Part shown: piece after piece, positions 2,180-63,993 of the stretch
Numbering within the stretch: position 1 is the stretch's first letter
Layout of the letters: each line of letters begins with the position of its first letter
NCBI GenBank assembly: GCA_002454975.1
Contig: DKJZ01000109.1
Coordinates: 11,685 to 75,684, forward strand
Direction: 5' to 3'
Length of the DNA: 64,000 bases
DNA from: Hylemonella sp. UBA6679
Lineage (GTDB): Bacteria; Pseudomonadota; Gammaproteobacteria; Burkholderiales; Burkholderiaceae_C
Position numbers and translations under genes: made by a program
Notes under the pieces: generated by a model
What the model was told of the DNA's origin: nothing
What the model saw: only the letters and a program-made list of their open reading frames with translations
Databases searched by the model: none

Positions 2180-2218
2180 TCTGTTTGCTACTTGATTTCT
2201 ATCGTCTTTTGCCAGACC

Positions 2219-2247
2219 AAAAAAAACGGCCTTGAAGGCCGTTTTTT
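2219..2247. terminator. Bidirectional rho-independent terminator shared by two convergent repeat-protein genes
   Basis: AAAAAAAACGGCC-TTGAA-GGCCGTTTTTT: a perfect stem with an A-tract on one side and a T-tract on the other, between the stops at 2179 (+) and 2263 (-). Confidence 0.85.
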
Positions 2248-2262
2248 ACTGGCTGATTGGGA

Positions 2263-29232: not shown

Positions 29233-29726
29233 CAGTCACCTCCCAGGGGTTTGGGGGGCAGGTTCAAAGGCAAGGCGCCTGGTTCGCGCAGGGGCATGGC
29301 TTTGACGGGGGCATCCAGCATCGGCAAGCCCATAACCTTGGGGTTGAGCGCAAAGGCTTTTGCCGTCGTGGCTTGCTGCGCCATGCCTTGCAGCACCTTG
29401 GCGTTGTCTTGCAAATGGGCTTGTTGGGTTTCCATGCTTTTGACCAGCATATCGGCCAGACCCGTACCACCTCGCTTGGCCATCTTGAGTGCCACCTCTT
29501 TGTCGAACATGTTCTCAAAGGTCTCAACATGGCTGGACGCACTGATGTCGCTTTTATCGACGGTGGCGCGCATGCTCTTCATCATCTGCTGCAAGAACAA
29601 CGCTTCAAACTGTTGCGCCGTTTCGCGCATGGCCGATTTGGCGTCTTGGCGTGCCTGTCCCTTGAGCTGTCCCAGCCCATCAAAATCCAGGTAGCTCCTG
29701 GCGGTGTTGAGGGAAGCGTTGTCCAT
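29232..29726 (-). CDS. flgJ: FlgJ-like rod-binding (scaffold) protein without a peptidoglycan hydrolase domain
   Basis: 164 aa. The rod-binding motif ETAQQFEALFLQQMMKSMR is present. The protein ends in a Pro-rich tail, with no glucosaminidase or other hydrolase region. Confidence 0.85.
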   Translation of the reverse strand: MDNASLNTARSYLDFDGLGQLKGQARQDAKSAMRETAQQFEALFLQQMMKSMRATVDKSDISASSHVETFENMFDKEVALKMAKRGGTGLADMLVKSMETQQAHLQDNAKVLQGMAQQATTAKAFALNPKVMGLPMLDAPVKAMPLREPGALPLNLPPKPLGGD

Positions 29727-37701: not shown

Positions 37702-38736
37702 TCATCGCTGCACGTTGTCGACGTTGTCAACCGCGCGGTATTCCGCCGAGCGTTGCGCTTGCAAGCGGTTGGGCAGGGCGTTGCTCAGGTTCTGACCGAA
37801 GTTGCCCAAGCGGTCCATGGTGTTTTGAACCAGGCCTTGCAAGATGGAGTTGCGGGTGATGGACGACTGCGGATTGCGCCCTTCATACAAGGCATGCGCC
37901 TGGTTGCCGGGTATACCCAAAGGCGCCTCGGGTCGCGTCTCGGCACGGGCTGCAGGTTGCAGCACCGCCAAATAAAGTTCATCCAGTGGCACTTGACCTT
38001 GCTTGTTCAGACCCACCTTATCGAAATAGGTGTCGACCAAATGCAACTGCTGGTAAACACTCAGGCTTTGGATGGCGCGAGGCGCATGGCCAAAGCCTAC
38101 GCTGGCAGCGCCGCGGGCTGGGCCATCGCAAAACTGGATGATCCCGTGGCATCGCTGGTTGGTGGCTTGCGGGTTCATGCCGTCGCTCTCCATGAGTGTG
38201 AGCTGCGCAAAATCGTCGGGTGAAAACTTGTGCTTGCCTGCCACTTGCAAGATTTTGTTGTAGACGTCTTGCTTTTCATTGGGAGGAATGAAGCCGCGTG
38301 CCACAGCTCTGTCCAGCGTTTGTCGCAGCACCGGGTGTGCTGGTGCTGCCGATGCAGTTTTAGCTGTCAACACAGCCTGGGTGCTAGGCGCAGGGGGCTG
38401 AACTGTGTTCGTTGCCAGGCCCGATGTGTTGGTTTTTTGAGCCATGACCTCACCAGCAGGGTCGGCCCAGCGGGCATGAAGACTGGCTATGTTGAGCTGC
38501 TGGCCAATGAAGATTCGGTTGGGGTTGGCAATGCCGTGGTCTTTGGCCAGGGCCATGACCGAGCGAAATTCCTGGGCATTGTTGAGTTGCACCCCGCGGC
38601 TTTGCGCCTCTTGCCGAACGATATGGCTCAGGGTGTCGCCATTTTTGACCGTGCGAAGGGCCACAGCGCCATGTGGCTCTTGCGGCTTGCTGGGTCTGCT
38701 TAAACCGGGGCTTTGGGAGGTGTCATTAATTCGCAT
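37702..38736 (-). CDS. LysM-domain protein with a lytic-transglycosylase-like C-terminal domain; no signal peptide
   Basis: N-terminal LysM (RTVKNGDTLSHIV...NPNRIFIGQQLNI). The C-terminal TLMESDGMNPQATNQRCHGIIQF resembles the SLT E-S...NP...G(L/I)(M/I)Q motif. The N-terminus MRINDTSQSPGLSRPSKPQEPHG is hydrophilic. Confidence 0.65.
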   Translation of the reverse strand: MRINDTSQSPGLSRPSKPQEPHGAVALRTVKNGDTLSHIVRQEAQSRGVQLNNAQEFRSVMALAKDHGIANPNRIFIGQQLNIASLHARWADPAGEVMAQKTNTSGLATNTVQPPAPSTQAVLTAKTASAAPAHPVLRQTLDRAVARGFIPPNEKQDVYNKILQVAGKHKFSPDDFAQLTLMESDGMNPQATNQRCHGIIQFCDGPARGAASVGFGHAPRAIQSLSVYQQLHLVDTYFDKVGLNKQGQVPLDELYLAVLQPAARAETRPEAPLGIPGNQAHALYEGRNPQSSITRNSILQGLVQNTMDRLGNFGQNLSNALPNRLQAQRSAEYRAVDNVDNVQR

Positions 38737-42192: not shown

Positions 42193-43569
42193 TTATCGTG
42201 GGGCGGCGCCTAACGCCAGGTTGGAGCGAGATTTGGGCAAAGCCGTGACTGGCAAGCTCACCGGGGTGTCTTGGCGCAAAGTCTGTGTGGGCCAGGCCCG
42301 CCAATTAGGTTGAACCGCCTGGGTGGGGCCTGCCAACACCGTCAGCATGGCCTCGTGCGCCGAGACGGCGTCCACCCGCGCCAAAAGGGTTTGTGGCGCT
42401 CCGTCTTTGGCCGCCAGGTGTTGTGGGAAACGGGCTGGGTCGGCAATCAACCATTCCTCGCCGGGCTGTACCCCTGCCAAGGCACCGGCATTGATGATGA
42501 GCTGTTGTTGCCTAGCCGCTGTCACTGCGGGTTGCACCACCTCGCACATGAGCCACTGGTTGAGGGTCTGGTGCCAGGCCATGAGTTGGTTGCTTAATGC
42601 GCGCTGGCTACTGGCAGTCAGGGTGGGTCGGCGCCACTCGGGCAGGTCCATCTCCAGGGTCAGGCTGGTCTGAACGTGCTGGCTTGCCCTGTGCCGGTCG
42701 GTGGGGCTGAGGGAGAGCGTCATGCTCAGGTCAACTTCACGCGGTGTGCTGGGACCCAACCAAGACACACCCGAGCTCATGGCAGGGCGGGCCGTGACTT
42801 TCAGTGTGGCTTGCCATGGCATTTCAGGCGGCAGTGTGCTGAGCAACAAGCGTTCGTAGGCGCTGACCTCACGCGCCAACAGAGGCCGTGACAGGTCGGA
42901 CACAAAACGCCACGCCTGGGTGCTGGGCTGGGCTTGGGGGCCTAGCCATTGTTCTTGCAGCAGGGCAGGCAAGCCTTGCGCGACTAGGGGGTGGGTGTCA
43001 CTGGGCATCTCCAACGCAAACTTCACCACATGGCGCAGGTGGTCGGCAGTACTTTTGCTTGGGCAGCTGGCGTCGTTTTTTTCAATGCTTGCCTGAGCAA
43101 CTTTAGCTTCTTTTTTGATAGCAGGTTTACCAGTTGTAGCGCTGCTTTCAGCTATATTCAACCAAGCTTTGGGTGCGCCTTGCTCGTCCCGCTCAAAGCC
43201 CATCACACGCACGCCTTGTACCTGCAGGCCGTTTTTGAAACTGCTGGCCTCATGCATCACACCGCGGTGGTCCATCCAGGTTGTGCTTTGCACCTTGGTG
43301 GGCGTTTGCAAAGAGGCTTCCACCAGGCTCAGGCGGATGGCATCTAAGCGCTCTTGCGGGCTGAGCGCGCTCGTGTTTGTGCTCGGTTTGGGCGCGGTCG
43401 CTGAGGTTTGCGCCTGCGCTGCGGGTAAACCTAGGCCCATGCCCAAAGCCAGTAACAAACCGGCAAGCAGCTGGGGCTGGGGCAACAACAAAGCCAAGGG
43501 CAACGCCCAAGGCTTGGGCCAACGCTCAGGAGATTGGCTGCTGGGCAACATCACATGCTTGGGTATCAA
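42193..43569 (-). CDS. Secreted 458-aa protein of unknown function, possibly FlgT-like
   Basis: Signal peptide ending AAQAQ. The C-terminal LIINAGALAGVQPGEEWLIADP....LARVDAVSAHEAMLTVLAG resembles the small beta-barrel signature of FlgT-C/LPP20-type domains (from memory). 4-nt overlap with the flgP-like gene. Alternative ATG at 43551. Confidence 0.45.
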   Translation of the reverse strand: MIPKHVMLPSSQSPERWPKPWALPLALLLPQPQLLAGLLLALGMGLGLPAAQAQTSATAPKPSTNTSALSPQERLDAIRLSLVEASLQTPTKVQSTTWMDHRGVMHEASSFKNGLQVQGVRVMGFERDEQGAPKAWLNIAESSATTGKPAIKKEAKVAQASIEKNDASCPSKSTADHLRHVVKFALEMPSDTHPLVAQGLPALLQEQWLGPQAQPSTQAWRFVSDLSRPLLAREVSAYERLLLSTLPPEMPWQATLKVTARPAMSSGVSWLGPSTPREVDLSMTLSLSPTDRHRASQHVQTSLTLEMDLPEWRRPTLTASSQRALSNQLMAWHQTLNQWLMCEVVQPAVTAARQQQLIINAGALAGVQPGEEWLIADPARFPQHLAAKDGAPQTLLARVDAVSAHEAMLTVLAGPTQAVQPNWRAWPTQTLRQDTPVSLPVTALPKSRSNLALGAAPR

Positions 43570-44066
43570 CGCGCGCTCACGGTCACTTGACCAATGAACA
43601 CGCGGCGCAGCTCGTGCACCACATCGCGGTCCAGTGACAGGGTGGTTTCATACGTGTCGTCACCCACCGGGGTGATGCTGACAAGCCGAGCGCCATAAAT
43701 CACGCCTTCAACTTTGGTGCGAAAGGTGTCGTTGGTCACCATCATGTCTGCCACGGTGGAGTTGGCATCGAGCTGCTGGCCGTAGACCTGTTCGGTCAGG
43801 GTGCGGTAGGCGTCTAATTTAGAGGCACGGATGGCCATCAAGCGCTGCTGGGCGGGATTTTTGCTCTGTTGCACGCTGATGACTGCATAGCCCGTGGCCG
43901 TGATGGTTTCGCGTTTTTGAACAATGGGACCGCTGGGTTGGACCGCTTCGGCCACAGGGGGCGCCAGGTCTATGGTGGTGCATCCTGCCAGGCCAGACAC
44001 AGCCAAAGCCAGGGCCAGGGCCAGACTTGTGGGGTGGGCGCTGGCAGATAGTCGGGTGCTTTTCAT
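43566..44066 (-). CDS. flgP: FlgP-like (LPP20 family) flagellar outer-membrane-associated lipoprotein
   Basis: Lipobox GLAGCTT. The core ATGYAVISVQQSKNPAQQRLMAIRASKLDAYRTLTEQVYGQQL..NSTV......DTFRTKVEGVIYGARLVSITP..DDTYETTLSL matches the FlgP/LPP20 pattern. Confidence 0.75.
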   Translation of the reverse strand: MKSTRLSASAHPTSLALALALAVSGLAGCTTIDLAPPVAEAVQPSGPIVQKRETITATGYAVISVQQSKNPAQQRLMAIRASKLDAYRTLTEQVYGQQLDANSTVADMMVTNDTFRTKVEGVIYGARLVSITPVGDDTYETTLSLDRDVVHELRRVFIGQVTVSAR

Positions 44067-44268: not shown

Positions 44269-45465
44269 TTGGCTACTTCGTCGATCCTCCCCACCTTTTT
44301 GGGCACCAGCCCGAGCGCGGTGGCCATTCGTCATTTGATTGAACGCGTGGCGCCATCCAGCGCGACTGTGCTCATCACTGGGGAGAGCGGAACTGGCAAG
44401 GAGCTGGTTGCCCGTGCCTTGCACGAGCAGTCCGAGCGCCGCGGGGCCCATTTTGTGCCGATCAACTGTGGTGCCATTCCCAAAGAACTGCTCGAGAGTG
44501 AGCTGTTTGGTCACCGCAAAGGCGCATTCACCGGAGCCATGGCCGACCGCGTGGGTCGCTTTGAGCTGGCGCATGGCGGTACGATTTTTCTGGACGAAAT
44601 TGGTGATATGCCACTGGACATGCAGGTTAAGTTGCTGCGCGTCTTGCAGGAGCGCACTGTAGAGCCTGTAGGCGGTTCGCGTCCGATCCCTGTCGATGTG
44701 CGCGTGGTGGCGGCTACCCACCGTGACCTGGAGGCGGAGATTGCCGCAGGACGCTTCCGTGAGGACTTGTATTACCGTCTCAATGTTTTGCCTATGAATA
44801 CCCCCGCCCTGCGCGAGCGTGGTCAGGACATTCCCGAGTTACTTCGCTTTTTCGCCCATAAATTTGCGGGCCAGGGCCAGGTGCCCATCAGCTTTGCACC
44901 CGACTTTATGGGGGTGTTGCAAACCTACGCTTGGCCAGGCAATGTTCGGGAGCTTTCGAACCTGGTTGACCGTTTCAACGCTTTGTTCAGCGGTCAACAG
45001 CTCAGCCTGGCGATGGTGCCACCGTCTTTTTTACCTAAGGGTTTGCGTGATTTGCAGGCTGAGCTGGCAGTCGGCACGGTGGCCGATACCCTTGCGCTGA
45101 GTCCTTACGCCTCCAACGAGCAAAACCGGTTTGACATTCCGCATGAGCTTGACTTGGTCGGAGCGACCCCAACACCGCATAACGATGTTGAAGACATCAT
45201 CATGCTGGCTCAGGGTTTGCCATGCCTGCCACCTGAAGGCTTGTCCTTGAAAGACTGTTTGGCTGGTATCGAGCGGGATTTGATTTTGCAGGCCCTCAAC
45301 CGGGCGGGGGGAAATGTTTCTCAGACAGCGCGTTTGTTGAACTTGCAGCGCACCACCCTCATCGTCAAGCTGGACAAATACGAACTGCGCGGTCTCGATG
45401 GTCAAGCTGACAGCGCTGATCACATGACTGAGTGCGCCGACAGCAACGGCGCAGCCGCTGCCTGA
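44269..45465 (+). CDS. Sigma-54-dependent enhancer-binding protein with only an AAA+ core and HTH (no N-terminal regulatory domain)
   Basis: The ORF cannot extend upstream; its TTG start is the first possible start in frame. The AAA+ domain begins within about 15 aa ([25 protein letters not shown]). C-terminal [27 protein letters not shown]. Confidence 0.9.
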
Positions 45466-45466
45466 T

Positions 45467-46384
45467 TCAAGGTTTTGTGCTGAGCACACCTGCTCCGGGG
45501 GTGGGGCTGGCATCTGAACCCGTGCGTGGGTACTGCACCATGAGCTCGCGTTTGCGCAGTGCTGCCGCACTCGCCGCCTCTGCTGCGGCTTTGGCCTGGC
45601 TGGCTTGCGCTTGGGCATTGGCTTCTGCCGTTTGTCGTTCGCGTTGCTGGCGTGCCAGCACTTCCATCTCGCGCTTCAAGCCTCCGGTTTCACCCAAGGC
45701 AGAACGCAGACCTTGCATCTGACCCGTCAGTGCATTGAGCGCAGAGGCCTGTGACTGCAAACGACCTTCCAAGTTTTGCACCTGTTTGGCCAATACCTGG
45801 CCTTTGGCATCGACTTGTTTGGCGGTTTGTTCCGGCACGCTTTGCGTGCTTTCCATCATCTCGTTGATACGTACCTCGAGTTTGGTCTGGGCCGAGGCGA
45901 TGTTGGCTTGCTTGGCCACCATCTCTTGAAGACCCTCGTTGACTGAGCCCACCACTTCAAGCGCATCGTTGAGTTCGCCCACGCGCTTGCTCATGGCGCT
46001 CAGCATCTGGTCAAGCTGGTTCAAGCGCGCTTTGAGGGTAAAGGTCATGGTGCCAAACACCAGCGCGCCAAACACCAACAAAGCGCCAGTGATGCCAAAC
46101 AGTAACAACGTTTTCTTGTTCTGCGATTTCAGCGTGGTGTTAATTTCCTTGGTGGCCTCCTTCAGACTTGCGCCTGCGTTGGTGGCCATGTGGGCTGATC
46201 GGTTAGCCAATTCGGCCGACTCCAGCACCACCACCCGCATGTCGATCAGCTCCTGGTCTTGCCCTTGTTCATCAGGGGTAGCTGGCGTATCGGCGGCCTG
46301 TGGCGAGGTCGCTGCTTGTGACTCGGCCACGACAACGCCCTTCTCATCAGGGGTGGGTTCGTTGGTTTTGGTGTCCGTGCTCAT
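45467..46384 (-). CDS. Single-pass membrane protein with a ~190-aa coiled-coil C-terminal region; unknown function
   Basis: 305 aa with one TM segment (TLLLFGITGALLVFGALVFGTMTF). Q/A/L/E-rich heptad-like sequence follows. The start overlaps the upstream stop (TGATG). Confidence 0.6.
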   Translation of the reverse strand: MSTDTKTNEPTPDEKGVVVAESQAATSPQAADTPATPDEQGQDQELIDMRVVVLESAELANRSAHMATNAGASLKEATKEINTTLKSQNKKTLLLFGITGALLVFGALVFGTMTFTLKARLNQLDQMLSAMSKRVGELNDALEVVGSVNEGLQEMVAKQANIASAQTKLEVRINEMMESTQSVPEQTAKQVDAKGQVLAKQVQNLEGRLQSQASALNALTGQMQGLRSALGETGGLKREMEVLARQQRERQTAEANAQAQASQAKAAAEAASAAALRKRELMVQYPRTGSDASPTPGAGVLSTKP

Positions 46385-46926
46385 CAGGTGTCCTTGTCTA
46401 ATTCGTCCAAGCGCTTTTGAAGTAACTCGTTTTCAATGCGCAAATGCACGATGCGCGCCGGAAAATCCATCTCAGGCATGGCCGGGAAGGATGGGGCTGT
46501 CGCAGTCGCTTTGGGTAAAACACGGTCTTCACCAAAGGATTCGGATGCAGGCCCCGAAGCTTGAGCCCCAGGCGATGTCGGGGTGGCCTCGTCTCGGCTC
46601 GGTGGGGCAGCTGCCGTGTGCGTCCCCATACTTGAAGGGGCGGGCACAGACACCTGGGATGTTGCTGCGGCATCTACCAAACCTTGGGTCTTGGCAGGCT
46701 TGTCAGCGCTGATGTTGTTGTCTGGGCGACTTTGCAGGGCTGGCGTGGTGTCGCTCACAAACTTGTCTGGCAGGATGTGCTCGATGATCTCGCCACCGCC
46801 TTCATTGAGCACCTTACGCACGGATGGCTCTTGCTGCGCCGCGGTCTTGGCCAAGGCTTTGTTCGACCCTTCGGGAATGGTGACCTCATGTTGCCGGTCG
46901 GAGCGGATGATGTCAGGTTCACTCAT
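46384..46926 (-). CDS. 180-aa low-complexity (P/A/S/T-rich) protein with a short C-terminal coiled coil; unknown function
   Basis: The ORF shows host-like third-position G/C bias and is translationally coupled to the next gene. I recognise no domain. Confidence 0.45.
   Translation of the reverse strand: MSEPDIIRSDRQHEVTIPEGSNKALAKTAAQQEPSVRKVLNEGGGEIIEHILPDKFVSDTTPALQSRPDNNISADKPAKTQGLVDAAATSQVSVPAPSSMGTHTAAAPPSRDEATPTSPGAQASGPASESFGEDRVLPKATATAPSFPAMPEMDFPARIVHLRIENELLQKRLDELDKDT
46538..46564 (-). promoter_or_regulatory. Intragenic FliA (sigma-28)-type promoter upstream of the coiled-coil membrane protein gene
   Basis: The minus strand reads TCAAGCTT-N11-TCCGAATC, inside the 180-aa ORF and about 150 nt upstream of the ATG at 46384. 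Confidence 0.55.
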
Positions 46927-46950
46927 GGTGGGATGGCGCTCGGAAAGGTA

Positions 46951-48330
46951 CTAGGGTTGGGTAACGTCGGCGGCAGATGAGAACAGCCGCTTTTGCATGG
47001 CCCGGCTGGAGCGAACCCAGCTTTCTTTGGGCATGTTCTGCGTTTGTAAAAATTCATCGGCCAATTCCTTGGTGGCAAAAGGTCCAGACACCAGTGCGTA
47101 GCGCGCCTGACTTTGCCCCGCTTCAAACTGTGGCACCACTTTGGCTTGACTCAAATTAGGGAAACGCTTTTGACGATCGCGGGCTTTGGCATAGGTTTCT
47201 GAATTGGTGTGTTGCACCACAAAAGTACCTCGGGCAAAAGCCTTCATCCAAGCTTGACCATCCGATGCAGCGCCAGGCAGCTCTGTTTGGACTTGGGTCT
47301 GTTTGATTGCGTCTTGGGGTGGCACGGTCTCGACAACCTGAGCGGTTGAGGTGTTGGCCAGGGGGGCTGCCGCGTTGATGTCGGCTACAGGTGTCTCAGG
47401 CCCAGGTGCAGCGGTGCCTTTGAAAACTTCAGCCTCAGAGCTTGCGTTGTTTTGGGTGGGTTGTGTCACAACAGCCTCAGCCACTTGGGGCTGGACCTCG
47501 GCTAGGGTGGCATTCGTCTGGCCCACCAAAGCACGAAACGCTTGCGGGTTGAGCCACGCCGCCACACCCGCAGAGAACATCAACAGGGCTGCCACAACAG
47601 CAGCCGCTTTGAGACGCATGGCCATGGTGGATGTGGTTGCAGGCTTGAGAGCGCTGGACTTACCTCCAGGCTTGGTGATGTCTGCAGGCCCAGCCGGGGC
47701 AGGGGGCACGGCGGCAGCCTGCCGTGCAGGGTCTGATTTTGCAGCCGAAGCTGTCGGGGCCATACGCGCAATCAGCGCGCGAACTTCAGTGGCTTGCGCA
47801 TCATGGCTCACACGTCCCAGACTTTCTTTGATTTGATCCAGACTGGGTCGCGCAATGGTCCAGCGCATGAGCGATTTGTTGAAGCTGGCGAGTCCTTCTG
47901 GCTCTGACTCTGCACCGGCAAAGACCAACAAGGCGCGCACATGTGCGCCAGGAAACTTTTCCAGCAGGTCGAGCATCATCATCACCTCGCCAGCGGGCAG
48001 GGCAGCTGCGTCATGCACCACCCACAATTGCATGGGCCGGTCCTGGGTCGGGGCTGCCATGGCCTGGGTCAAGGGTAAGTCGGCGACCACTTGGTTGAAG
48101 CTGCTGACAATCGCATCGGTGTCAGCCGGGAAAAACGGCTTGATCAGGACATGCGGTACGTCGATGTTCAAACGTTCGATGAGCATGTCTTTGTAATGCT
48201 CAGCTAAGGCATGAACCGCAGAGATGATGGCCAGGCTTTTGCCATCCTTGCTGATTGCGGCGACCGCAGCCTCGTAGCGAATCCGGTCGATCAGTTGAAA
48301 GAAGTGGGGTTCCATGACGTGATCGTTCAA
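46951..48330 (-). CDS. SPOR-domain membrane protein with a degenerate ExeA-like (P-loop-less) N-domain
   Basis: The C-terminal FVVQHTNSETYAKARDRQKRF....ARYALVSGPFATKELADEFL looks like a SPOR fold signature. Central TM segment AAVVAALLMFSAGVAAWL. The N-domain has LWVVHDAAAL (DEAQ-like) but no GxxGxGK. TTG at 48330 overlaps the flhB stop; alternative ATG at 48315. Confidence 0.6.
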   Translation of the reverse strand: MNDHVMEPHFFQLIDRIRYEAAVAAISKDGKSLAIISAVHALAEHYKDMLIERLNIDVPHVLIKPFFPADTDAIVSSFNQVVADLPLTQAMAAPTQDRPMQLWVVHDAAALPAGEVMMMLDLLEKFPGAHVRALLVFAGAESEPEGLASFNKSLMRWTIARPSLDQIKESLGRVSHDAQATEVRALIARMAPTASAAKSDPARQAAAVPPAPAGPADITKPGGKSSALKPATTSTMAMRLKAAAVVAALLMFSAGVAAWLNPQAFRALVGQTNATLAEVQPQVAEAVVTQPTQNNASSEAEVFKGTAAPGPETPVADINAAAPLANTSTAQVVETVPPQDAIKQTQVQTELPGAASDGQAWMKAFARGTFVVQHTNSETYAKARDRQKRFPNLSQAKVVPQFEAGQSQARYALVSGPFATKELADEFLQTQNMPKESWVRSSRAMQKRLFSSAADVTQP

Positions 48331-49481
48331 GAGCTGCGATTGTCAGCCAATTTACCGTCGGGATCGAACAGCATCGAGGCAGGGACTTTAGGGTTGGGGC
48401 GAGGCATGGGCTCGACGCCTGGCTTGATATCAGCCAGGCTAAAGACATAGGCAATCACCTGGGCCACAGCCAAGTACAGCGACTCGGGGATGGGCTGGTC
48501 TTCCTGGGTGGTGAAGTACAAGGCGCGCGCCAAGGGGGGCGCTGCAAACATCTCAACGCCGTGCTTGGCCGCTTCCTCACGGATGCGAGCAGCCATGTGG
48601 TCAGCGCCCTTGGCCAGCAAAATCGGGGCGCCGTCTCCGGTAGGGTCGTATGACAGGGCTACCGCAAAGTGTTCAGGGTTGGTGATGACAACGTCTGCAT
48701 CCTTGACCTTTTGGATCATGCGGGCGTTGGCCATTTCACGCTGACGCTGACGGATCGCTGCCTTGATTTCAGGACGACCTTCCATGTCTTTCATTTCATC
48801 CTTGACCTGCTGCTTGGTCATCATCATGCGTTTGTTGAAGGAGAAGCGCTGGTAAGGTGCATCGATGAATGCAATGATGAGCAGGCTCAACGACAGCCAC
48901 ATGGCCGACTCGCCGATCATGGCACCTGCGGCCCCCAGCGCGGGCTCCAGGCTCATTTGACCCAAGGCCATGAGCGCATCCATCTGACGGCTCACCAAAA
49001 CCCAAAGCACCACGGTGACCAGTGAAAACTTCAGCACCGATTTGCCCAGTTCAACCAGCGCATGTGTACCAAACATGCGGGTCAAACCTTTGAGTGGGTT
49101 GATTTTTTCAAATTTTGGGGTCGCGCTTTTCATGGTAAACAAAAAGCCGCCGGTGGCACCACTGGCCAGCACAGCCAGCACCAGGGTGAAAAGCAGAACA
49201 GGCAGGATCAGCAGAAAACTCTCCCCCATGTGGTGCATGAAGGTGGTGGCCATCAGGTCAGGGTTGTCCAGCGTTTTGCGGTCAAAGCTGAACCCCTTAG
49301 CAAACGATGTGCTTAGCCGTTGAATCCAGGCACTGCCTATCATGTAGAGCAGCACGATCGCCCCAATCGTGACTGCAGCAGCGGGTAGCTCCGTCGAGCG
49401 AGCGACCTGACCGTCTTCACGCGCTTTGCGCAGGTGTCGCGAGGTGGGTTGTTCGGTTTTTTCTGCGCTGCTCTCAGACAT
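48327..49481 (-). CDS. flhB: Flagellar export gate protein FlhB
   Basis: N-terminus EKTEQPTSRHLRKAREDGQVARS, four TM segments, and an NPEH autocleavage-type site (ITNPEHFAVAL). Confidence 0.95.
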   Translation of the reverse strand: MSESSAEKTEQPTSRHLRKAREDGQVARSTELPAAAVTIGAIVLLYMIGSAWIQRLSTSFAKGFSFDRKTLDNPDLMATTFMHHMGESFLLILPVLLFTLVLAVLASGATGGFLFTMKSATPKFEKINPLKGLTRMFGTHALVELGKSVLKFSLVTVVLWVLVSRQMDALMALGQMSLEPALGAAGAMIGESAMWLSLSLLIIAFIDAPYQRFSFNKRMMMTKQQVKDEMKDMEGRPEIKAAIRQRQREMANARMIQKVKDADVVITNPEHFAVALSYDPTGDGAPILLAKGADHMAARIREEAAKHGVEMFAAPPLARALYFTTQEDQPIPESLYLAVAQVIAYVFSLADIKPGVEPMPRPNPKVPASMLFDPDGKLADNRSS

Positions 49482-49493
49482 GCTTTGCCTCTC

Positions 49494-50264
49494 TCATGTC
49501 AAACCCACCAGGGTGCGCACTTGCAAAAACCCCTGCATCCAGAGCCACTGGATGCGAGCGCCAATGCTGGGAAGAGCCAGCACCAACACGCCAAAGCCAG
49601 CAAAAATCATGGCGGGAAATCCCACCGAAAAAATATTCAGGCTTGGTGCTGCACGCGTCGCCACACCTAAGCCAATGTTGATGAACAAAAGCGCCACCAT
49701 CACGGGTAAGGCGGTGAGGACGGCGCCTAAAAACAGCATGGAGCTCCAGGCGATGAGTTGTCGCCAGGCCACATCGGCCACCAGACTTTTGCCGATGGGC
49801 AGCGTGGTAAAGCTCTCCACCACCAAGTTCAGCAACAAGGCGTGTCCGCCTAAACCGACGAAAATCAAGGTGGCCATGACCAGCAAAAATTGGCTCAGCA
49901 CTGGCACATTGCCCATGTTGGGGTCGATCATGGTGGCCATGGACAGGCCGATGGCATTGGCTATGGACTGACCAGCCACCACAATGGCTGAGGTCACAAC
50001 CTGCAAGATCAAACCCATGAGCAAGCCAATCATGAGTTGGTTGCCCACCTCGAGCAAGCCGTCACCGCTGAGGGGGTCGATTTGTGGCCAAGTGTGCAAG
50101 GGGTAAACCAACCAGGTGAGGGACAGGGCCAGCAAAATGCGCACACGCAGGTTGAGCGCTCGGAGTGAAAAAATCGGGGCTGCCACCAACAATGCCGAGA
50201 TGCGCAGCATGGGCCACAACAACGCATTGAAATGCGCCATCAAATCGGGGATGGTGAAGTCCAT
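49494..50264 (-). CDS. fliR: Flagellar export gate protein FliR
   Basis: 256-aa polytopic membrane protein between fliQ and flhB. Confidence 0.9.
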   Translation of the reverse strand: MDFTIPDLMAHFNALLWPMLRISALLVAAPIFSLRALNLRVRILLALSLTWLVYPLHTWPQIDPLSGDGLLEVGNQLMIGLLMGLILQVVTSAIVVAGQSIANAIGLSMATMIDPNMGNVPVLSQFLLVMATLIFVGLGGHALLLNLVVESFTTLPIGKSLVADVAWRQLIAWSSMLFLGAVLTALPVMVALLFINIGLGVATRAAPSLNIFSVGFPAMIFAGFGVLVLALPSIGARIQWLWMQGFLQVRTLVGLT

Positions 50265-50269
50265 GAGTG

Positions 50270-50539
50270 TCAGGTGAACAGGCCCGGAATCCGCTGGAAG
50301 ATGGCACGTGTGTAATCCACCATGGTGGTGAGCTGCCAGCCCCCAGCAATTGCCAGTGTGATGGCCAGTGCAGCAAGTTTAGGAATGAAGCTCAGCGTGG
50401 CTTCATTGATAGAGGTGGCCGCTTGAAGCACACCAATGACCAAGCCCACAAAAAGGGCCACGCCCAGCAAGGGCGCCGAAATCAGCACCGTCATCCACAA
50501 GGCCTGTCGGCCTAAATCCACAACAGCAGCGGTGTCCAT
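50270..50539 (-). CDS. fliQ: Flagellar export gate protein FliQ
   Basis: 89 aa after trimming to MDTAAVVDLGRQALW; two TM segments; typical FliQ. Confidence 0.9.
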   Translation of the reverse strand: MDTAAVVDLGRQALWMTVLISAPLLGVALFVGLVIGVLQAATSINEATLSFIPKLAALAITLAIAGGWQLTTMVDYTRAIFQRIPGLFT

Positions 50540-50561
50540 GGTGTCCTTTGTTTGGGTGAAT

Positions 50562-51308
50562 TCAAACCACAAAGCTCGCGGCGAGAGATCCGAGAATCAG
50601 ACTCCAACCATCGACCAGCACAAAGAGCATGAGCTTGAAGGGCATAGAGATCATCATGGGCGAGAGCATCATCATGCCCATTGACATCAACACGCTCGAG
50701 ACAATCAGATCAATCACCACAAATGGGATGTAGATCAGAAAGCCAATGGTGAATGCGCTCTTGAGTTCAGAGGTGATGAAAGCCGGTACCAGGGTCGCAA
50801 ACGGTACTTCAGCCGCGCTGGCGACATCGGGGCGGCGCGCCATTTGCATGAACAGCGCGATGTCATCTTCCCGGGTTTGTTTGAGCATGAAGCCGCGCAG
50901 CGGCTCTTCGGCAGCCGCCAGGGCTTTGTCAAAAGCCATGGTGTTGTTCATGTATGGAGCAATTGCCCCAACATAAAGGTCTTGCAAGACCGGCGACATG
51001 ATGAACAGTGTGAGAAACAAGGCCAGACCCACCAGCACAGTGTTGGGCGGGGTTTGGCCGGTGCCCAAGGCTTGACGCAAGATGGACAGCACGATGATGA
51101 TGCGCACGAACGAGGTCATCATGAGCAAAAAAGACGGCAGCAGTGTGAGCGAAGTCATCAGCGCCAGAACCTGCAAGGTCAGGCTGTACTGCGTACCCTT
51201 GGCGCCACCACTCACATTCACCATGGGAATGCCCTGGGCCTGAGCCAAGAAGGGTAAGCCCATGAGGGCCATGCTGGCCAACAGGACCAAGCAAGATTTA
51301 AGCTTCAT
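50562..51308 (-). CDS. fliP: Flagellar export gate protein FliP
   Basis: Signal peptide (trimmed start MKLKSCLVLL). Conserved FliP core (SFVRIIIVLSILRQALG, GFLIYIPFVVIDLIVSSVLMSMGMMM). Confidence 0.95.
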   Translation of the reverse strand: MKLKSCLVLLASMALMGLPFLAQAQGIPMVNVSGGAKGTQYSLTLQVLALMTSLTLLPSFLLMMTSFVRIIIVLSILRQALGTGQTPPNTVLVGLALFLTLFIMSPVLQDLYVGAIAPYMNNTMAFDKALAAAEEPLRGFMLKQTREDDIALFMQMARRPDVASAAEVPFATLVPAFITSELKSAFTIGFLIYIPFVVIDLIVSSVLMSMGMMMLSPMMISMPFKLMLFVLVDGWSLILGSLAASFVV

Positions 51309-51636
51309 GAGTGGCACCCACGCGATCTTGCAAATCAACAAGGGCCTGGTGATCAGGCGTCACCGTTTGACCGTCGGACCACTGCGCCAGTGCTGTGATG
51401 TGTGTCGGGCTCACACCTACCAACACCTCATGTCCACCCACCCTCACCAGGGCGAGTTTGTGGCGGGTATTGAGGCTCAAACTTTCCACCACCTGCAAGC
51501 GACGCGCGCCAACTTGGCTCACCATCTTGGCCTGCATGCGTTTGAGGACCCACAACAAAACTGCCATCACGATGAGGACCAGCGCCATGCTGCCGATCAT
51601 GCGGAACAAGTCCGCGCCTGAAAAACCTGGAGGCAT
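51298..51636 (-). CDS. fliO: Flagellar protein FliO
   Basis: 112 aa with a single TM segment, positioned between fliN and fliP. Confidence 0.8.
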   Translation of the reverse strand: MPPGFSGADLFRMIGSMALVLIVMAVLLWVLKRMQAKMVSQVGARRLQVVESLSLNTRHKLALVRVGGHEVLVGVSPTHITALAQWSDGQTVTPDHQALVDLQDRVGATHEA

Positions 51637-51644
51637 GTTGTTAC

Positions 51645-51950
51645 TCAGAGATTTTTCATGCGCTCGGAAGCAGGCGCCACGCGGGTCAGGCGGACGCCGT
51701 AACGGTCATTGACCAGCACGATTTCACCCTGCGCCACCACGGTGTTGTTGACCAGCAGGTCCAGCGGTTCGCCGGCAATGCGATCGAGCTCCACCACACT
51801 GCCTTGGGTCAGTCGCATGAGGTCGCGGATTTTGATCATGGCGCGTCCCACCTCGATGGACAAAGTCACCGAAATGTTTTGCAAGACCTCGGGGTTGATC
51901 TGGCGCTGGTTGTTGGCCGATTCGGCCTGGTCGATGGATGTGTCAGTCAT
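51645..51950 (-). CDS. fliN: Flagellar motor switch protein FliN
   Basis: SpoA-type C-terminus (LTQGSVVELDRIAGEPLDLLVNNTVVAQGEIVLVNDRYGVRLT). Trimmed to the Met at 51950, just after the fliM stop. Confidence 0.9.
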   Translation of the reverse strand: MTDTSIDQAESANNQRQINPEVLQNISVTLSIEVGRAMIKIRDLMRLTQGSVVELDRIAGEPLDLLVNNTVVAQGEIVLVNDRYGVRLTRVAPASERMKNL

Positions 51951-51963
51951 GATGTTGTGTGGG

Positions 51964-52953
51964 TTATTGCAAGTCAGGAATACAAGCGCGTTCAATTTGT
52001 ACAGCGGTCTGGGCACCTAAGCTGCCCACTTGCACATCAAACGCAGGCAAGCCATTGACCATGAGGCGCGCCAGTTCGGGTTTTTTGAAGAACAGGACAT
52101 CACCTTCCTGCATGGCTTCAATCTGGCCAATCGAGCTGTCGATCGCACCCAGGATCACACGCAGCTCCAGGCTAGCGCTGTCAACAGCAACGGAAAGCTC
52201 CTCGGACCATTGCTTGTCGGACTCTTCGTTGCCATCGCCCGTCTGTACGCGACTTCGCAACAGCTCACGGATAGGTTTGAGCGATGCGTAAGGGTGGACC
52301 AGGTCAATGAAGCCCCGGGCATCCATATTGCCCTCTGCATCAAAGCGGCTCAGGATGACCAGGTCGTTCTCATCAGCGATTTGGGCGAACTGCGGGTTGA
52401 TTTCCGAGCTCACGAGCTCGAAGTCCACAGGCATCACAGGCGACCACGCGTCTTTGAGACAACGGAAGAACACATCCAAAATCATGTTGATGATGCGTGT
52501 CTCTGTGGGTGTGAAAAGACGCCCAGGTGGCAACTGTCCAACGCCTTTGCCAAAGCCACCAAAAAAGCTGTCGAGCGAGCTGAACACCACCGTGGGGTCG
52601 AGCACGACGATGGAGTAGCCCCGCAGTGGGTTCATGCGCACCACATTGACTGACATGGGCGCTTGCAGACCCTTGAGGTAGTCGCCAAACCGTACGATTT
52701 GCACCTGGAGCGGATTGACTTTAGGGCTGCTGCGCAGCATTTCCACCAAACCCAGACGAAACATCCGGATGAAGCGCTCGTTGATCATGTCTAGCGCTGT
52801 GACATTGACGCCTAAGCTGCTGTCTTCGCTGGCCAGGTCATGTTTCTTGACCCGCACCGCGGTGTTGAACCCAGTGTCAACCGGGATGGGGCCGTCCTGC
52901 ACGCCTTCGGCCAAAGCCGTGAGCTCGTCAGGGGTGAGTAGGTTGTTGGCCAT
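51964..52953 (-). CDS. fliM: Flagellar motor switch protein FliM
   Basis: The N-terminal LLTPDELTALAEG is a CheY-P-binding-type motif; 329 aa. Confidence 0.95.
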   Translation of the reverse strand: MANNLLTPDELTALAEGVQDGPIPVDTGFNTAVRVKKHDLASEDSSLGVNVTALDMINERFIRMFRLGLVEMLRSSPKVNPLQVQIVRFGDYLKGLQAPMSVNVVRMNPLRGYSIVVLDPTVVFSSLDSFFGGFGKGVGQLPPGRLFTPTETRIINMILDVFFRCLKDAWSPVMPVDFELVSSEINPQFAQIADENDLVILSRFDAEGNMDARGFIDLVHPYASLKPIRELLRSRVQTGDGNEESDKQWSEELSVAVDSASLELRVILGAIDSSIGQIEAMQEGDVLFFKKPELARLMVNGLPAFDVQVGSLGAQTAVQIERACIPDLQ

Positions 52954-52979: not shown

Positions 52980-53591
52980 TTACTGGATCACGAAGTTGGT
53001 GTAAAGCACCTCTTCAATGCCTCCAAAGTCTTCGTACTTTTCAAGCAAGGTGTTCATGGCGTCGCGAATCTTGCGGGACAGCTCAACGCGGAACTCTGGC
53101 TTGTTCACTTCAGACTCTGGCACTTGCCGCAGGATGTCCAAGATGGCCGAGCGCAAGGCAAAGTCGTGTTTTTTAACGTTGGCAAACACACGCTCGTCGT
53201 AGTGCGTCATGACCGCCAGCGAGATGGACATGACTTTCTTGGAGTTCATGATGTTGACCAAAAAGTCCTTCTCGATTTGCATGTAGTTGTACTCAAAGCG
53301 CGTGCTCTCAGGACTCTTCTTGGCCAGCTTGGCAGGCTTGGCGCTCTTGCCATCTTTACCGTCTTTCTTGCCTTGACCCGCATGTCCGTCAGCCGCTTCA
53401 GCGGCATCAGGATCGACCGGCGGCTTGGGATTGAAATAGCCCGAGAAAAACAAAGTGCCAAAGACCGTGCCGACCAGCATCACGATCACGCCCACCACAC
53501 CAAGAATGATCTTGACGATGGGTTTTTTTGGCTTGGCCTCAACTTCACCACCTTCTTCGGCGGCGGGTGCTGCTGCAGGAGCTTTTGCCAT
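52980..53591 (-). CDS. fliL: Flagellar basal-body-associated protein FliL
   Basis: Single TM segment plus the FliL periplasmic domain. Start chosen at 53591, which follows AAAGAGG. Confidence 0.9.
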   Translation of the reverse strand: MAKAPAAAPAAEEGGEVEAKPKKPIVKIILGVVGVIVMLVGTVFGTLFFSGYFNPKPPVDPDAAEAADGHAGQGKKDGKDGKSAKPAKLAKKSPESTRFEYNYMQIEKDFLVNIMNSKKVMSISLAVMTHYDERVFANVKKHDFALRSAILDILRQVPESEVNKPEFRVELSRKIRDAMNTLLEKYEDFGGIEEVLYTNFVIQ

Positions 53592-53630
53592 ATTTACCTC
53601 TTTCAATGCGTTGCGTTGGTGGACGGTGCT

Positions 53631-55142
53631 TTAAACCAGCTCGTCCCATCCACCCATGGATTTTGCTCTTGGTGTCTGAACTTTCACTTCAGCGTGGTGA
53701 TTCAACACAGAACCAGTGCTGGGGACGTCCTGGGGCATTTGCCGGGGTGTCGGATTTCCGCCAGTTTGTTGCTGACCATCGCTGTTCACCCAGACATTAG
53801 CAACTGCCATGCCTGCTTGTGCCAGGCTGTCACGTAATTTGGGTGCACTTTGGGCAATCAGTTCGCGGGTCAAGGGGTTCTCGCTCTTGAACAGGGCGTC
53901 CAAGCCACTGGCGTTCATGTCGAGTTCGACCGAGATTTTGCCCAGATGACCTGGTTTAAGACGTAACTCCAGCTTCCACTGACCTTGAGCCATTTGGTCT
54001 TGGAGCCGCTCGCTGAGGGCTTTGCCCAGTTTGTCGGCCAGTTGGCTGATCTGGTCAGCGCGCTCGCCAGTGCTCGGTCCTGTGGTTGTCTGACCCATTT
54101 CCCCCAAGGTCAGCGCTGGCCGGTTGCTCGCAGCACTGCTTTGTTGTGCGCTGTTGTCATTGTTGAATGTGGCTGACACTGTGCCCACGCCGTTGCCGGT
54201 GTCGGTGAGCGCGCCGATCGATGTGTCGCCCAGATCAATGTCCATGGCGGTTACGCCTGATGCCTGGCTATCGAGCAGGTCGTTGGCAAAAGAGGCCCAA
54301 GAAAAAGACACGTCGCTGCCTGTGACCTTGGCAAGGCTGCGCGTCATGCTTTCCCAGGCTGGTATGAGTCGCATGCGGATGGCATCGAGCGGACCCGGTT
54401 CGGGCGGCAGCGCCAGGCCCTGGGTAGGTGCTAGCTCGGCTGCAGGTGTGTTGATCACCTGGCCTAAGCGAGCCAAAGTGGCCGAGGCGCCCGAGTTGAC
54501 CAAGAGTTGTTCGAGCGTCTCAGCGTTGGTGGCAGGGTGACTTGAGGGCAACACGCTCTGGCTCGAGCTGATCGGGGCCAGGCTGGGTGTACCAGGCTGG
54601 GTGGCATTGATAAACCAGCTCGGAGGTGGGCTGCCAGCAAGCTGACGGTCTACAGGGCTGTTGGTGAGCCAAGCCATGGGGTCTGGGGTGGTGGTGACGG
54701 TCAGAGGGGGCTGCGTCACCCCCAAGCCAAGAGCTGGTAGCTGCTCCAGATCGCCAAACAAAGCCTGGACCGCTCGGTCATCCAGGCCCTGGGCTTTGGC
54801 AAAGGCGGCCAAGCTGTTGGCATCTGGTTGCGGTGCGTCGGCGGTGATGACGGAAAACTGTGTACCCAAGGCCATGGTTTGCAAGCCGCCATGGCTTGCC
54901 GCCAAGTCCGCAGCGGCAAGATCTTGCCGCTCGCTGTCGGGCAGCAGCCCCCGCATCAGGTTGGCAAATTCTTTGCCCAACATCGACTGCCCAGTAGCGG
55001 GTGCTGCCCGGCCGATGGGTGTTTTTTCCCCTATTTGCAGGGCATTGGGGACCGAGGCGTTTACAAAGTTCAGGTTCGCGTCCATGCTCATTCCAGTCAT
55101 TTGGCTTGGTTCGTACCGGCGCATGTCTGGCCGGCTCACCAA
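53631..55142 (-). CDS. fliK: Hook-length control protein FliK
   Basis: The C-terminal LRLKPGHLGKISVELDMNASGLDALFKSENPLTRELIAQSAPKLRDSLAQAGM is the Flg_hook domain. TTG at 55142, or ATG at 55124. Confidence 0.85.
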   Translation of the reverse strand: MVSRPDMRRYEPSQMTGMSMDANLNFVNASVPNALQIGEKTPIGRAAPATGQSMLGKEFANLMRGLLPDSERQDLAAADLAASHGGLQTMALGTQFSVITADAPQPDANSLAAFAKAQGLDDRAVQALFGDLEQLPALGLGVTQPPLTVTTTPDPMAWLTNSPVDRQLAGSPPPSWFINATQPGTPSLAPISSSQSVLPSSHPATNAETLEQLLVNSGASATLARLGQVINTPAAELAPTQGLALPPEPGPLDAIRMRLIPAWESMTRSLAKVTGSDVSFSWASFANDLLDSQASGVTAMDIDLGDTSIGALTDTGNGVGTVSATFNNDNSAQQSSAASNRPALTLGEMGQTTTGPSTGERADQISQLADKLGKALSERLQDQMAQGQWKLELRLKPGHLGKISVELDMNASGLDALFKSENPLTRELIAQSAPKLRDSLAQAGMAVANVWVNSDGQQQTGGNPTPRQMPQDVPSTGSVLNHHAEVKVQTPRAKSMGGWDELV

Positions 55143-62796: not shown

Positions 62797-63993
62797 CTAA
62801 GATTTTGGCGCTGCTGCGTCGTTGTGGATGCACCGCCACAACGCGATTTCCTCTTGGGTCAGCCGGTTTTTATGCTGCGCAACCACCTCAAATTTTTCCT
62901 TGTCTGTCATGATGGCTAGCATGCGCATTTGACTTAACACCAATTTGAAATGCTCGACAGCATGCTCTGGGTTAGCGGCAATTTTGTGCAAAGGTAAAAC
63001 CGAGACGTCTTCTTTGAGTTCTCGTTCACGTTTGGCTTGAATGATCAAGCGTTGCACCTCTTCCTTGCTCAAATGCAAGCGTTTGGCTTCCCGATTCAGG
63101 TTGACCTTTTCTTCCTCAGACAAGGTGCCATCAGAGAGCATTTCATAGAGCTGGTTTTTGAGGGATTCGCGCTCAATGCGTAGCTGGTCGCTGAAGGCCG
63201 AAGACAGCAAGGCCGCTGGAATGGCAAAAATGCCAATCCCCAACAAGGCCAAAATGATGGTGATGATCCGTCCCATCGGTGTGATGGGTGAAATGTCTCC
63301 GTACCCCACTGACGCCAGCGTGATGACAGCCCAGTAAATGGACTGAGGAATATTTTCAAATTTTTCCGGTTGTGCGTCATGTTCGAACAAATACCCCAAG
63401 CTGGCAGTCATCACCACCAGCAGAAGCATCACAAAGGCAGAGGCCGCAAGCACTGGCCACTCGCGCACCACAACTTTCATGAGCGTGTTTGTTGCTCCTG
63501 TGTAGCGTGTGAGTTTGAGCAAACGCAGCAAGCGAAAAACGCGCAAGAAACGAAGGTCAAAGAGGTGGTGCAAAAACACCTCGAGGAAGAAGGGCAGGAT
63601 GGCCATCAAGTCAATCAAGGCGGAGGTTGATCGTGCTTGTTTCAGCCGCCCAACCACGGGTCTGGTGTAGCCAGGGGTTTCCACACACGCATAAAGCCTT
63701 AGTCCATATTCCAGGGTAAAAACGCTCACAGCAATGGCATCGAGCACAATGAACTCGATGTTCAAAACATAGTGGATGCTTTGTACCGACTCAAGGATGA
63801 CGGCGATCACTGAAATAATCACCCAAAAGACAATGAAGTGATCAAACAGTTGGTGTAGGCTTCCGCCAAATTCGCCCGGAAACACCAAGGCATGTACTTT
63901 TTGCCGGAATGTGCGGCCCTGGTTGGCTTGTTTGAACTCAGACCAGGCTGGAATCAACACGCGAAACAGCTTGAGCAGACGCAGCAGCCGCAC
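62797..63993 (-). CDS. Voltage-gated-type (6TM) potassium channel; N-terminus may lie beyond the window
   Basis: Selectivity filter TLASVGYGD and S4-like FLRVFRLLRLLKLTRY. The frame remains open to the window edge, and the first residues (RLLRLLKLFRV) are themselves S4-like. Confidence 0.8.
   Translation of the reverse strand: MRLLRLLKLFRVLIPAWSEFKQANQGRTFRQKVHALVFPGEFGGSLHQLFDHFIVFWVIISVIAVILESVQSIHYVLNIEFIVLDAIAVSVFTLEYGLRLYACVETPGYTRPVVGRLKQARSTSALIDLMAILPFFLEVFLHHLFDLRFLRVFRLLRLLKLTRYTGATNTLMKVVVREWPVLAASAFVMLLLVVMTASLGYLFEHDAQPEKFENIPQSIYWAVITLASVGYGDISPITPMGRIITIILALLGIGIFAIPAALLSSAFSDQLRIERESLKNQLYEMLSDGTLSEEEKVNLNREAKRLHLSKEEVQRLIIQAKRERELKEDVSVLPLHKIAANPEHAVEHFKLVLSQMRMLAIMTDKEKFEVVAQHKNRLTQEEIALWRCIHNDAAAPKS

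Follow-up and report, generated by a model that had tools for sequence, protein, structure and literature searches.

In a 64,000-nucleotide (nt) stretch of DNA from Hylemonella sp. UBA6679 (contig DKJZ01000109.1; "the window" below), flhB is followed by three minus-strand open reading frames (ORFs), which we give the working names X, Y and Z. They form a conserved, translationally coupled extension of the operon that encodes the flagellar export gate. X is a membrane protein that combines an AAA+-like cytoplasmic fold with a periplasmic SPOR domain, Y is an acidic and presumably disordered protein, and Z crosses the membrane once. The gene structure, the domain identities, the conservation and the invariant linkage to flhB are direct observations. 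We tentatively propose, at somewhat less than an even chance, that X, Y and Z constitute a flagellum-dedicated inner-membrane module that is tethered to peptidoglycan (PG) through the SPOR domain and serves as a new-pole landmark or anchor.

X, Y and Z are appended to the export-gate operon

The window contains an unbroken minus-strand flagellar run, fliK-L-M-N-O-P-Q-R-flhB, in which flhB is the final canonical gene. The names fliK to fliR derive from gene order, ORF sizes and Pfam calls on syntenic homologues; the family-library scan covered flhB only. X, Y and Z lie behind flhB at the positions where a model reading the bare letters of this DNA (the sequence-only reading) had drawn them:

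53631-55142, minus strand: fliK
52980-53606, minus strand: fliL
51964-52953, minus strand: fliM
51645-52016, minus strand: fliN
51298-51636, minus strand: fliO
50562-51341, minus strand: fliP
50270-50572, minus strand: fliQ
49494-50264, minus strand: fliR
48327-49481, minus strand: flhB, export-gate switch protein (Pfam Bac_export_2, 1.5e-123; TIGR00328, 9.6e-113, over the cut-off)
46951-48315, minus strand: gene X, bitopic inner-membrane protein of 454 amino acids (aa) (ORF; homologue start MEPHFF; model; Foldseek)
46384-46926, minus strand: gene Y, acidic protein of 180 aa (ORF; 16 close homologues; alignment; isoelectric point (pI) 4.9)
45467-46384, minus strand: gene Z, single-pass membrane protein of 305 aa (ORF; more than 317 homologues; alignment; model)

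The stop codon of flhB, TGA, occupies 48329-48327. Two candidate start codons are close to it, an overlapping TTG at 48330 and an ATG at 48315, in agreement with the sequence-only reading, which had placed the start of X within 0-12 nt of the flhB stop. Since all X homologues in the alignment begin with MEPHFF, the ATG is the true start; X therefore has 454 aa, the gap to flhB is 11 nt, and the TTG is unlikely as an alternative start. X ends at 46951 and Y begins at 46926, while the stop codon of Y and the start codon of Z share a TGATG overlap. The stop codon of Z (45469-45467) is 1 nt from that of a convergent gene for a sigma-54 activator (44269-45465, plus strand). A promoter and terminator scan revealed no convincing terminator from flhB to Z; terminator-like sites numbered 12 against a shuffled expectation of 7.6 ± 2.8, a value that is not clearly exceeded.

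The plus strand of the window encodes FlhA, FlhF, FlhG, FliA, FliS, MotA and MotB. With FlhF and FlhG both present, the flagellar system is of the FlhF/FlhG type, as had been read from the letters. X, Y and Z matched no family over threshold in Pfam and NCBIfam, the curated flagellar families included: X and Y were without flagellar-family matches and Z gave only sub-threshold coiled-coil noise. By these scans, the three proteins are covered by no curated family, and the trio stands outside the canonical flagellar gene sets, as the sequence-only reading had suspected.

The linkage to flhB is conserved across two proteobacterial classes

An exhaustive HMMER profile search recovered 568 representatives of X at E<=1e-3, counted as 50%-identity clusters. 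Of these, 396 remain at E<=1e-10 and still 180 at E<=1e-30, and most of the 568 are full length. X seemed very rare in a word-indexed search, which gave 17 proteins, and in a genome scan with two narrow peptide patterns, which returned two metagenome-assembled genomes (MAGs; Comamonadaceae and Burkholderiaceae). Both results are sensitivity artefacts, and the exhaustive profile search overturned the apparent rarity. Burkholderiales are among the sampled lineages, and the names available for the relatives comprise Hylemonella sp., Limnohabitans sp., Burkholderiaceae and one Cellvibrionales/Porticoccaceae MAG. The relative from the latter is annotated as "SPOR domain-containing protein", and some members of the family carry the automatic annotation DamX.

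A metagenome scan confirmed 327 X relatives and returned 80 loci. In 78 of them flhB is the gene directly upstream of X, on the same strand, and the other two contain no upstream DNA, so the linkage is kept in 78 of 78 informative loci; its loss in relatives had been named beforehand as an observation that would count against the proposal. The gene order was scored in the 44 loci whose DNA extends 2.6 kb or more downstream of X. ORF chaining found X, followed by a Y without a transmembrane (TM) segment and a Z with one, in 42 loci, and the two remaining loci both match Z by tblastn, one of them Y as well. The overlap between Y and Z is 4 nt in 41 of the 44. Where loci were inspected individually, flhB and X are separated by a few to ~20 nt or overlap by 4 nt.

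All individually inspected contexts likewise have flhB upstream, including Comamonadaceae, Burkholderiaceae and Hylemonella MAGs and one Cellvibrionales/Porticoccaceae genome. The most distant inspected loci agree (L004, L015, L097, L098 and the gammaproteobacterial L013). The linkage thus spans two proteobacterial classes, the fliR-flhB context is found throughout, and flhB is the constant partner of the three genes across lineages. This synteny is about as strong as synteny gets, and it shows that X-Y-Z extends the export-gate operon in a conserved and translationally coupled way.

X carries a degenerate AAA+-like domain on the cytoplasmic side

An AlphaFold2 model of X, built with 14 homologues, shows a confident alpha/beta domain (residues 8-185), a TM helix, a disordered region (residues 267-343) and a confident C-terminal domain (residues 345-445). 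The following segments can be assigned:

47746-48315, minus strand: X residues 1-190, cytoplasmic AAA+-like alpha/beta domain (model; Foldseek; motif check in 58 members)
47551-47613, minus strand: X residues 235-255, TM helix (AlphaFold2 helix 230-267; invariant L244 and S248; sequence)
47287-47532, minus strand: X residues 262-343, periplasmic linker, Pro/Ala-rich, acidic and disordered (pLDDT <50 over 267-343; gappy alignment)
46981-47283, minus strand: X residues 345-445, SPOR domain (Foldseek match to 2lfv; profile against DamX; Pfam SPOR in 25 of 58 members)

The N-terminal domain was predicted with a local confidence (pLDDT) of mostly 83-92, falling to 72-79 in a few blocks. In a Foldseek search of the PDB it matches the clamp-loader/initiator clade of AAA+ proteins (RFC, MuB, DnaA domain III, ORC and Hda), with E values from 6e-5 for the best match to 5e-3 over 165-215 aligned columns and modest TM-scores. 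The resemblance comprises the alpha/beta core and the helical lid of this clade.

The sequence-only reading had described the P-loop of this domain as lost, and a survey of 58 X members bears this out. No GK[ST] of a Walker A motif is present at the beta1-alpha1 loop in any of them, and the loop is just 2-3 residues long (IISAVHALAEHY). The segment AISKDGKS (residues 20-27) fits a loose Walker A pattern; because it precedes beta1 and is not conserved, we consider it a chance match. A Walker-B-like WVVHDA is conserved only in part. The domain has conserved motifs of its own, namely DHY, FN, FPGA(H/N) and W152. The N-terminal domain is best regarded as a degenerate and probably non-catalytic AAA+ fold. 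Given the missing nucleotide-binding loop, it most likely serves as an interaction platform and not as an ATPase.

The hydrophobic core of the TM helix spans residues 237-255, with R234 and K236 on its N-terminal, cytoplasmic side. The periplasmic linker that follows has a pI of 4.05 and differs in length and sequence among the homologues.

The C-terminal domain of X has a SPOR fold

The C-terminal domain adopts a beta-alpha-beta-beta-alpha-beta fold in the model, with a pLDDT of ~90. Foldseek aligns it to the nuclear magnetic resonance structure of the Escherichia coli DamX SPOR domain (2lfv) with 27% identity over 95 columns, a probability of 1.0 and a target-normalised TM-score of 0.61. Against the DamX SPOR sequence, the X family profile reaches E=6.3e-8. 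Among 58 diverse X members, 25 match Pfam SPOR at E<=0.01 (best 2.2e-8) and 38 at E<=5. Profile and model together identify the domain as a genuine SPOR domain. The layout foreseen by the sequence-only reading, with one TM segment, a Pro/Ala-rich linker and a C-terminal SPOR domain, is thus recovered by the model, the 2lfv match and the family profile.

SPOR domains bind glycan strands that amidases have stripped of peptides, and such strands are enriched at the septum (PMC6895207). The X domain has a conserved VQH motif, in which Q368 is nearly invariant, and a well-conserved SGPF motif; the domain is basic (pI 9.9). In the family-profile alignment Q368 coincides with the beta1 glutamine of DamX. 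In our own register, taken through the DamX alignment, it corresponds to FtsN Q251 and RlpA Q270, which contact N-acetylmuramic acid (PMC6895207); the FtsN glycan-contact residues used for comparison are Q251, S254, W283, R285 and I313. X thus keeps the SPOR fold and the key glutamine; glycan binding is predicted, and its specificity could differ.

The fold and motifs are shared with DamX, FtsN, DedD, RlpA and RgsS, and in the alignment with DamX both the beta1 glutamine and the GP(F) motif of X have counterparts. DamX is also bitopic and has a disordered linker ahead of its SPOR domain. It could be argued on these grounds that X is a general cell-division protein of the DamX kind which, together with its two neighbours, came to lie behind flhB by chance and plays no part in the flagellum. 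No solved relative of the C-terminal domain is closer than DamX, and the automatic DamX annotations point the same way. The similarity is nevertheless confined to the SPOR domain, the cytoplasmic domain of DamX being unrelated to that of X. Moreover, X is always encoded behind flhB and never in a division or dam context, and its adjacency to flhB is maintained at translational-coupling distances in all informative loci of both classes. The flhB synteny makes a non-flagellar division role very unlikely, and we give this explanation hardly any weight.

Y and Z are variable proteins with conserved helical segments

The helical and membrane segments of Y and Z are as follows:

46393-46464, minus strand: Y residues 155-178, C-terminal coiled-coil-type helix, FPARIVHLRIENELLQKRLDELDK, the best-conserved part of Y
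46112-46249, minus strand: Z residues 46-91, membrane-adjacent conserved helix, VLESAELANRSA..., the most conserved alignment block (model helix 41-180)
46040-46108, minus strand: Z residues 93-115, TM segment (hydrophobicity scan; flanks from sequence)
45536-46039, minus strand: Z residues 116-283, C-terminal coiled-coil region, then VxYPR (alignment; model helices)

Neither a TM segment nor a signal peptide is present in Y. The protein is acidic (pI 4.9; median of the family 4.67, with pI <5 in 34 of 46), of biased, low-complexity composition and presumably disordered. Its length ranges from 56 to 545 aa across lineages, and conservation in the alignment is limited to an N-terminal motif (MSEExQIFR-like) and a C-terminal helix of ~30 residues. 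This matches the earlier description of Y as a disordered protein of 180 aa. When the family profile is compared with PDB sequences, the helix region resembles designed coiled-coil peptides (E=5e-5). At four loci (L034, L039, L043 and L065) Y homologues reach 340-440 aa through tandem acidic repeats of the DAEGPSDxRAL type. Lineages with an expanded Y also show a K/E/A/R-rich insert in Z, and the two expansions seem to co-occur.

Z had been read as a single-pass coiled-coil protein of 305 aa joined to Y by the TGATG overlap; the hydrophobicity scan, the model and the sequence bear out a single-pass helical protein with this overlap. One hydrophobic TM segment is present in every homologue. It is preceded by KSQNKK and followed by KAR, so that the N-terminal side is the more positive. 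From these flank charges and the missing signal peptide, we infer that the N-terminus faces the cytoplasm and the C-terminus the periplasm. The best-conserved block, with the motif VL[DE][AS]AE[LV]ANRSA, would then lie on the cytoplasmic side, and a second conserved segment, QLDxMxLAVGKR, follows the membrane. The N-terminal part is acidic (pI ~4.4, median 4.38) and the C-terminal part basic (pI about 9.2-9.3); many homologues have a charged K/E/A/R-rich insert of variable length in the basic helical region. The AlphaFold2 model of Z consists of three long helices (41-180, 186-230 and 236-283) with disordered ends. Foldseek found no structural match for this model, and the profiles of Y and Z matched only generic or designed coiled coils among PDB sequences.

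A proposed wall-tethered module at the new pole

In the reading that we favour, X, Y and Z would be made along with the export-gate proteins from the fliK...flhB operon. X would span the inner membrane and present its AAA+-fold domain to the cytoplasm as an interaction platform, while the flexible linker of ~80 residues would let the periplasmic SPOR domain reach PG and bind amidase-denuded glycan. Y would be a cytoplasmic, acidic and apparently disordered partner with a C-terminal coiled-coil helix, and Z would contribute an acidic part in the cytoplasm and, across its one TM segment, a basic coiled coil in the periplasm. The translationally coupled Y and Z could join X in one inner-membrane complex. 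As denuded glycans concentrate at the closing septum, we propose that the module is captured there and passed on to the new pole. It would then mark or stabilise the polar assembly site of the co-expressed export gate and the MS ring, and would tether the nascent basal body to the wall; an effect on flagellar placement may follow.

There are three precedents for the use of such a signal in polarity. In Sinorhizobium, the SPOR domain of RgsS and the amidase AmiC select the new pole (PMC7822825). Domains that bind septal PG, namely the AMIN domain of PilQ, also serve to install the type IV pilus machinery in advance at future division sites, and a polar machine is thereby put at the future new pole (PMC5285504). 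Domain type and machine differ from those of X, and the likeness is purely conceptual. The landmark proteins HubP and FimV combine a PG-binding periplasmic domain, a TM segment and an acidic, repeat-rich cytoplasmic region in bacteria with FlhF/FlhG polar flagella (PMC12918733). In X-Y-Z these features would be split over three proteins, with the acidic part supplied by Y and the N-terminus of Z (median pI 4.67 and 4.38) and with SPOR in place of LysM. The Pfam and NCBIfam scans of X, Y and Z detected no LysM or FimV C-terminal domain and no HubP/FimV homology.

Several points weigh against this proposal. SPOR binding alone fits a landmark, simple wall anchoring and wall penetration alike, and the FlhF and FlhG of the window might be enough for placement. 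That the three proteins form a complex is suggested by gene coupling only, and the N-in topology of Z by its flank charges and missing signal peptide. Taken by itself, the X of the window scores below the Pfam SPOR (PF05036) cut-off (14.4 bits against 21, E=0.049). The FtsN positions W283 and R285 are not conserved and, in our own register, are occupied by R/K405 and A407, so the glycan specificity of X could differ. Finally, the family comes nearly entirely from uncultured organisms.

The proposal can be narrowed to a SPOR-based polar landmark in which X recognises septal wall processed by amidases and, with Y and Z, passes the new pole on to flagellar assembly, upstream of or alongside FlhF. 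This narrower version is a candidate that we consider unlikely. Present evidence is compatible with both a landmark role and that of a PG-remodelling adaptor.

Resemblance to GspA/GspB and to periplasmic motor scaffolds

The sequence-only reading had called the N-terminal domain of X ExeA-like. This stands for fold and architecture and fails for sequence homology. GspA/ExeA is laid out in the same order, from an AAA+-type fold in the cytoplasm through one TM segment and a linker in the periplasm to a PG-binding domain at the C-terminus (PMC9239104). As with GspB/ExeB, a bitopic partner (Z) is encoded close by, and both sets of genes are appended to those of an envelope-spanning machine. An hhalign comparison of the X family profile with GspA gave a probability of 0.15% and E=0.38, a weak test given that the E. 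coli K-12 GspA target was a single sequence. AAA_22 is weak in 3 of 58 X members (best E=0.011), compared with 1.5e-7 for E. coli GspA. The latter consists of AAA_22, a TM segment, a C39-like domain and PF01471, whereas X has no Walker A motif and no C39-like domain and carries a linker and SPOR instead. Z shows no evidence of the GspB HR domain (no Pfam match). The third, disordered partner Y sets the module apart from GspA/GspB, as does its flagellar fliR-flhB context in place of a type II secretion context with gspB. "ExeA-like" is therefore a resemblance of fold and architecture without detectable sequence homology.

The shared layout raises the alternative of an adaptor for wall penetration. 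A PG-tethered membrane pair would recruit a wall-cleaving enzyme or hold it in place, or else bind the processed glycan found at the hole, and in this way let the rod and the periplasmic rings through the wall; no pole would be marked. X has the layout of GspA, Z is bitopic like GspB, and the polyampholyte sequences of some GspB proteins (PMC9239104) recur in Z homologues. The genes sit with those of the early export gate. The FlgJ of the window (29232-29726, 164 aa) has only a rod-binding domain and no hydrolase domain, while two-domain FlgJ with hydrolase activity is ascribed to most beta- and gammaproteobacteria in PMC8517470. With a single-domain FlgJ, a separate lytic activity must be supplied and positioned. 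On the other side, GspA homology is undetectable and the module encodes no hydrolase or lytic transglycosylase. GspA function also needs the ATP-binding motif, according to an ExeAB study listed in PMC6617341, and this motif is missing in X. We regard wall penetration as the main competitor, though an improbable one, and the single-domain FlgJ adds to its weight.

X and Z might instead belong to the structure of the mature motor as a periplasmic scaffold, anchoring extra periplasmic rings or stators to the wall in the manner of MotY, FlgT or PflA/PflB-type proteins in high-torque polar motors. Comamonadaceae loci place X-Y-Z beside genes for LPP20/FlgP-like and weakly FlgT-like proteins. The SPOR domain and the C-terminal part of Z are both basic (pI 9.9 and 9.3), and the latter is long, helical, presumably periplasmic and equipped with a conserved terminal motif. 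Such neighbours are, however, found mainly in Comamonadaceae-type loci; tblastn did not detect LPP20-type genes beside X-Y-Z in most loci (L013 and L097 included), and flhB, rather than any disk gene, is the neighbour that stays constant. For a purely periplasmic scaffold one would also not expect X to have a large conserved domain in the cytoplasm, nor a disordered partner there. Pfam, NCBIfam, Foldseek and PDB searches gave no similarity to known ring or stator-anchor proteins. We consider this explanation less likely still than wall penetration.

The favoured reading, a PG-tethered module at the new pole, bears on a wider question. How polar flagellates choose a pole and couple their basal bodies to the wall is partly understood and depends on the lineage. 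To our knowledge, the sole known activity of SPOR domains is the binding of wall material made at the division septum. We know of no HubP/FipA-type factor described in the large set of aquatic beta- and gammaproteobacteria concerned. Literature searches that paired SPOR with DamX, ExeA, FlhF, flhB or the basal body yielded no account of the X-Y-Z module and no paper that connects a SPOR protein to flhB.

The building blocks are familiar ones. SPOR domains, AAA+ folds and coiled coils are all known, as are accessory pairs that tether an envelope-spanning machine to PG. In some gammaproteobacteria, AAA-type proteins that have both a TM segment and a SPOR domain are encoded close to pilus or competence genes, and these are a conceivable evolutionary source of X. 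The module adds three families to the flagellar accessory repertoire and presents an AAA+ fold reduced to a probably non-catalytic module, here in a flagellar setting. Located behind flhB in hundreds of uncultured aquatic bacteria, X-Y-Z would provide a plausible link from the flagellum to the new pole or the cell wall. It is a concrete, widespread and testable candidate for a connection between flagellum assembly and either cell division or the wall. If correct, the landmark version would give one answer to how polar flagellates of the FlhF/FlhG type find the new pole.

Other features of the window

The sigma-54 activator convergent with Z has neither a receiver nor a FleQ-type N-terminal domain, its AAA+ domain starting at residue 11. 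Homologues of 389-405 aa occupy the same place in relatives. A second sigma-54 activator (16621-18168, minus strand) has ~160 residues ahead of its AAA+ domain.

Further accessory genes lie on the minus strand. The segment 41699-44066 encodes a lipoprotein that is LPP20/FlgP-like (43566-44066), a protein of 458 aa that matches FlgT_C weakly (E=0.029) and a 201-aa protein without a family. These genes are conserved in Comamonadaceae loci and were not found beside the trio by tblastn in most others; their products may be extra periplasmic ring components. In the segment 40303-41702, another FliK-like protein (361 aa, Flg_hook) is encoded ahead of a protein of 105 aa that corresponds to the FlhB C-terminal domain only. 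This pair is conserved in related loci, where it adjoins flgN and flgM. A 344-aa protein (37702-38736), whose sole match is a borderline LysM (E=3.4e-4), is divergent from flgA and heads the region upstream of flgD. A counterpart without Pfam matches is found at the same place in related loci.

Several structural proteins of the filament and hook are unusually long: FlgE has 909 aa (33181-35910, minus strand), FlgK 914 aa (26488-29232, minus strand) and one flagellin 645 aa (18297-20234, minus strand). A second flagellin of 273 aa is encoded at 22501-23322. The gene for the single-domain FlgJ is on the minus strand, and flgK begins immediately behind it. A FlgJ of this kind is unusual in a betaproteobacterium and implies that passage of the rod requires a separate wall-lytic enzyme.

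A voltage-gated-type ion channel homologue (62797-63993, minus strand; Ion_trans, Ion_trans_2) directly follows motB. The region 11-6591, at the left end of the window, has a G+C content of ~49-50%, against 55-60% elsewhere, and contains two large ORFs of 722 aa (plus strand) and 1442 aa (minus strand) with no Pfam match. At the edge of the flagellar region, 7935-9197 (minus strand) encodes a eukaryotic-type carbonic anhydrase with an N-terminal extension of 210 residues. In the distant locus L098 a carbonic anhydrase gene (10822-11676) lies directly after X-Y-Z, which may be coincidence.

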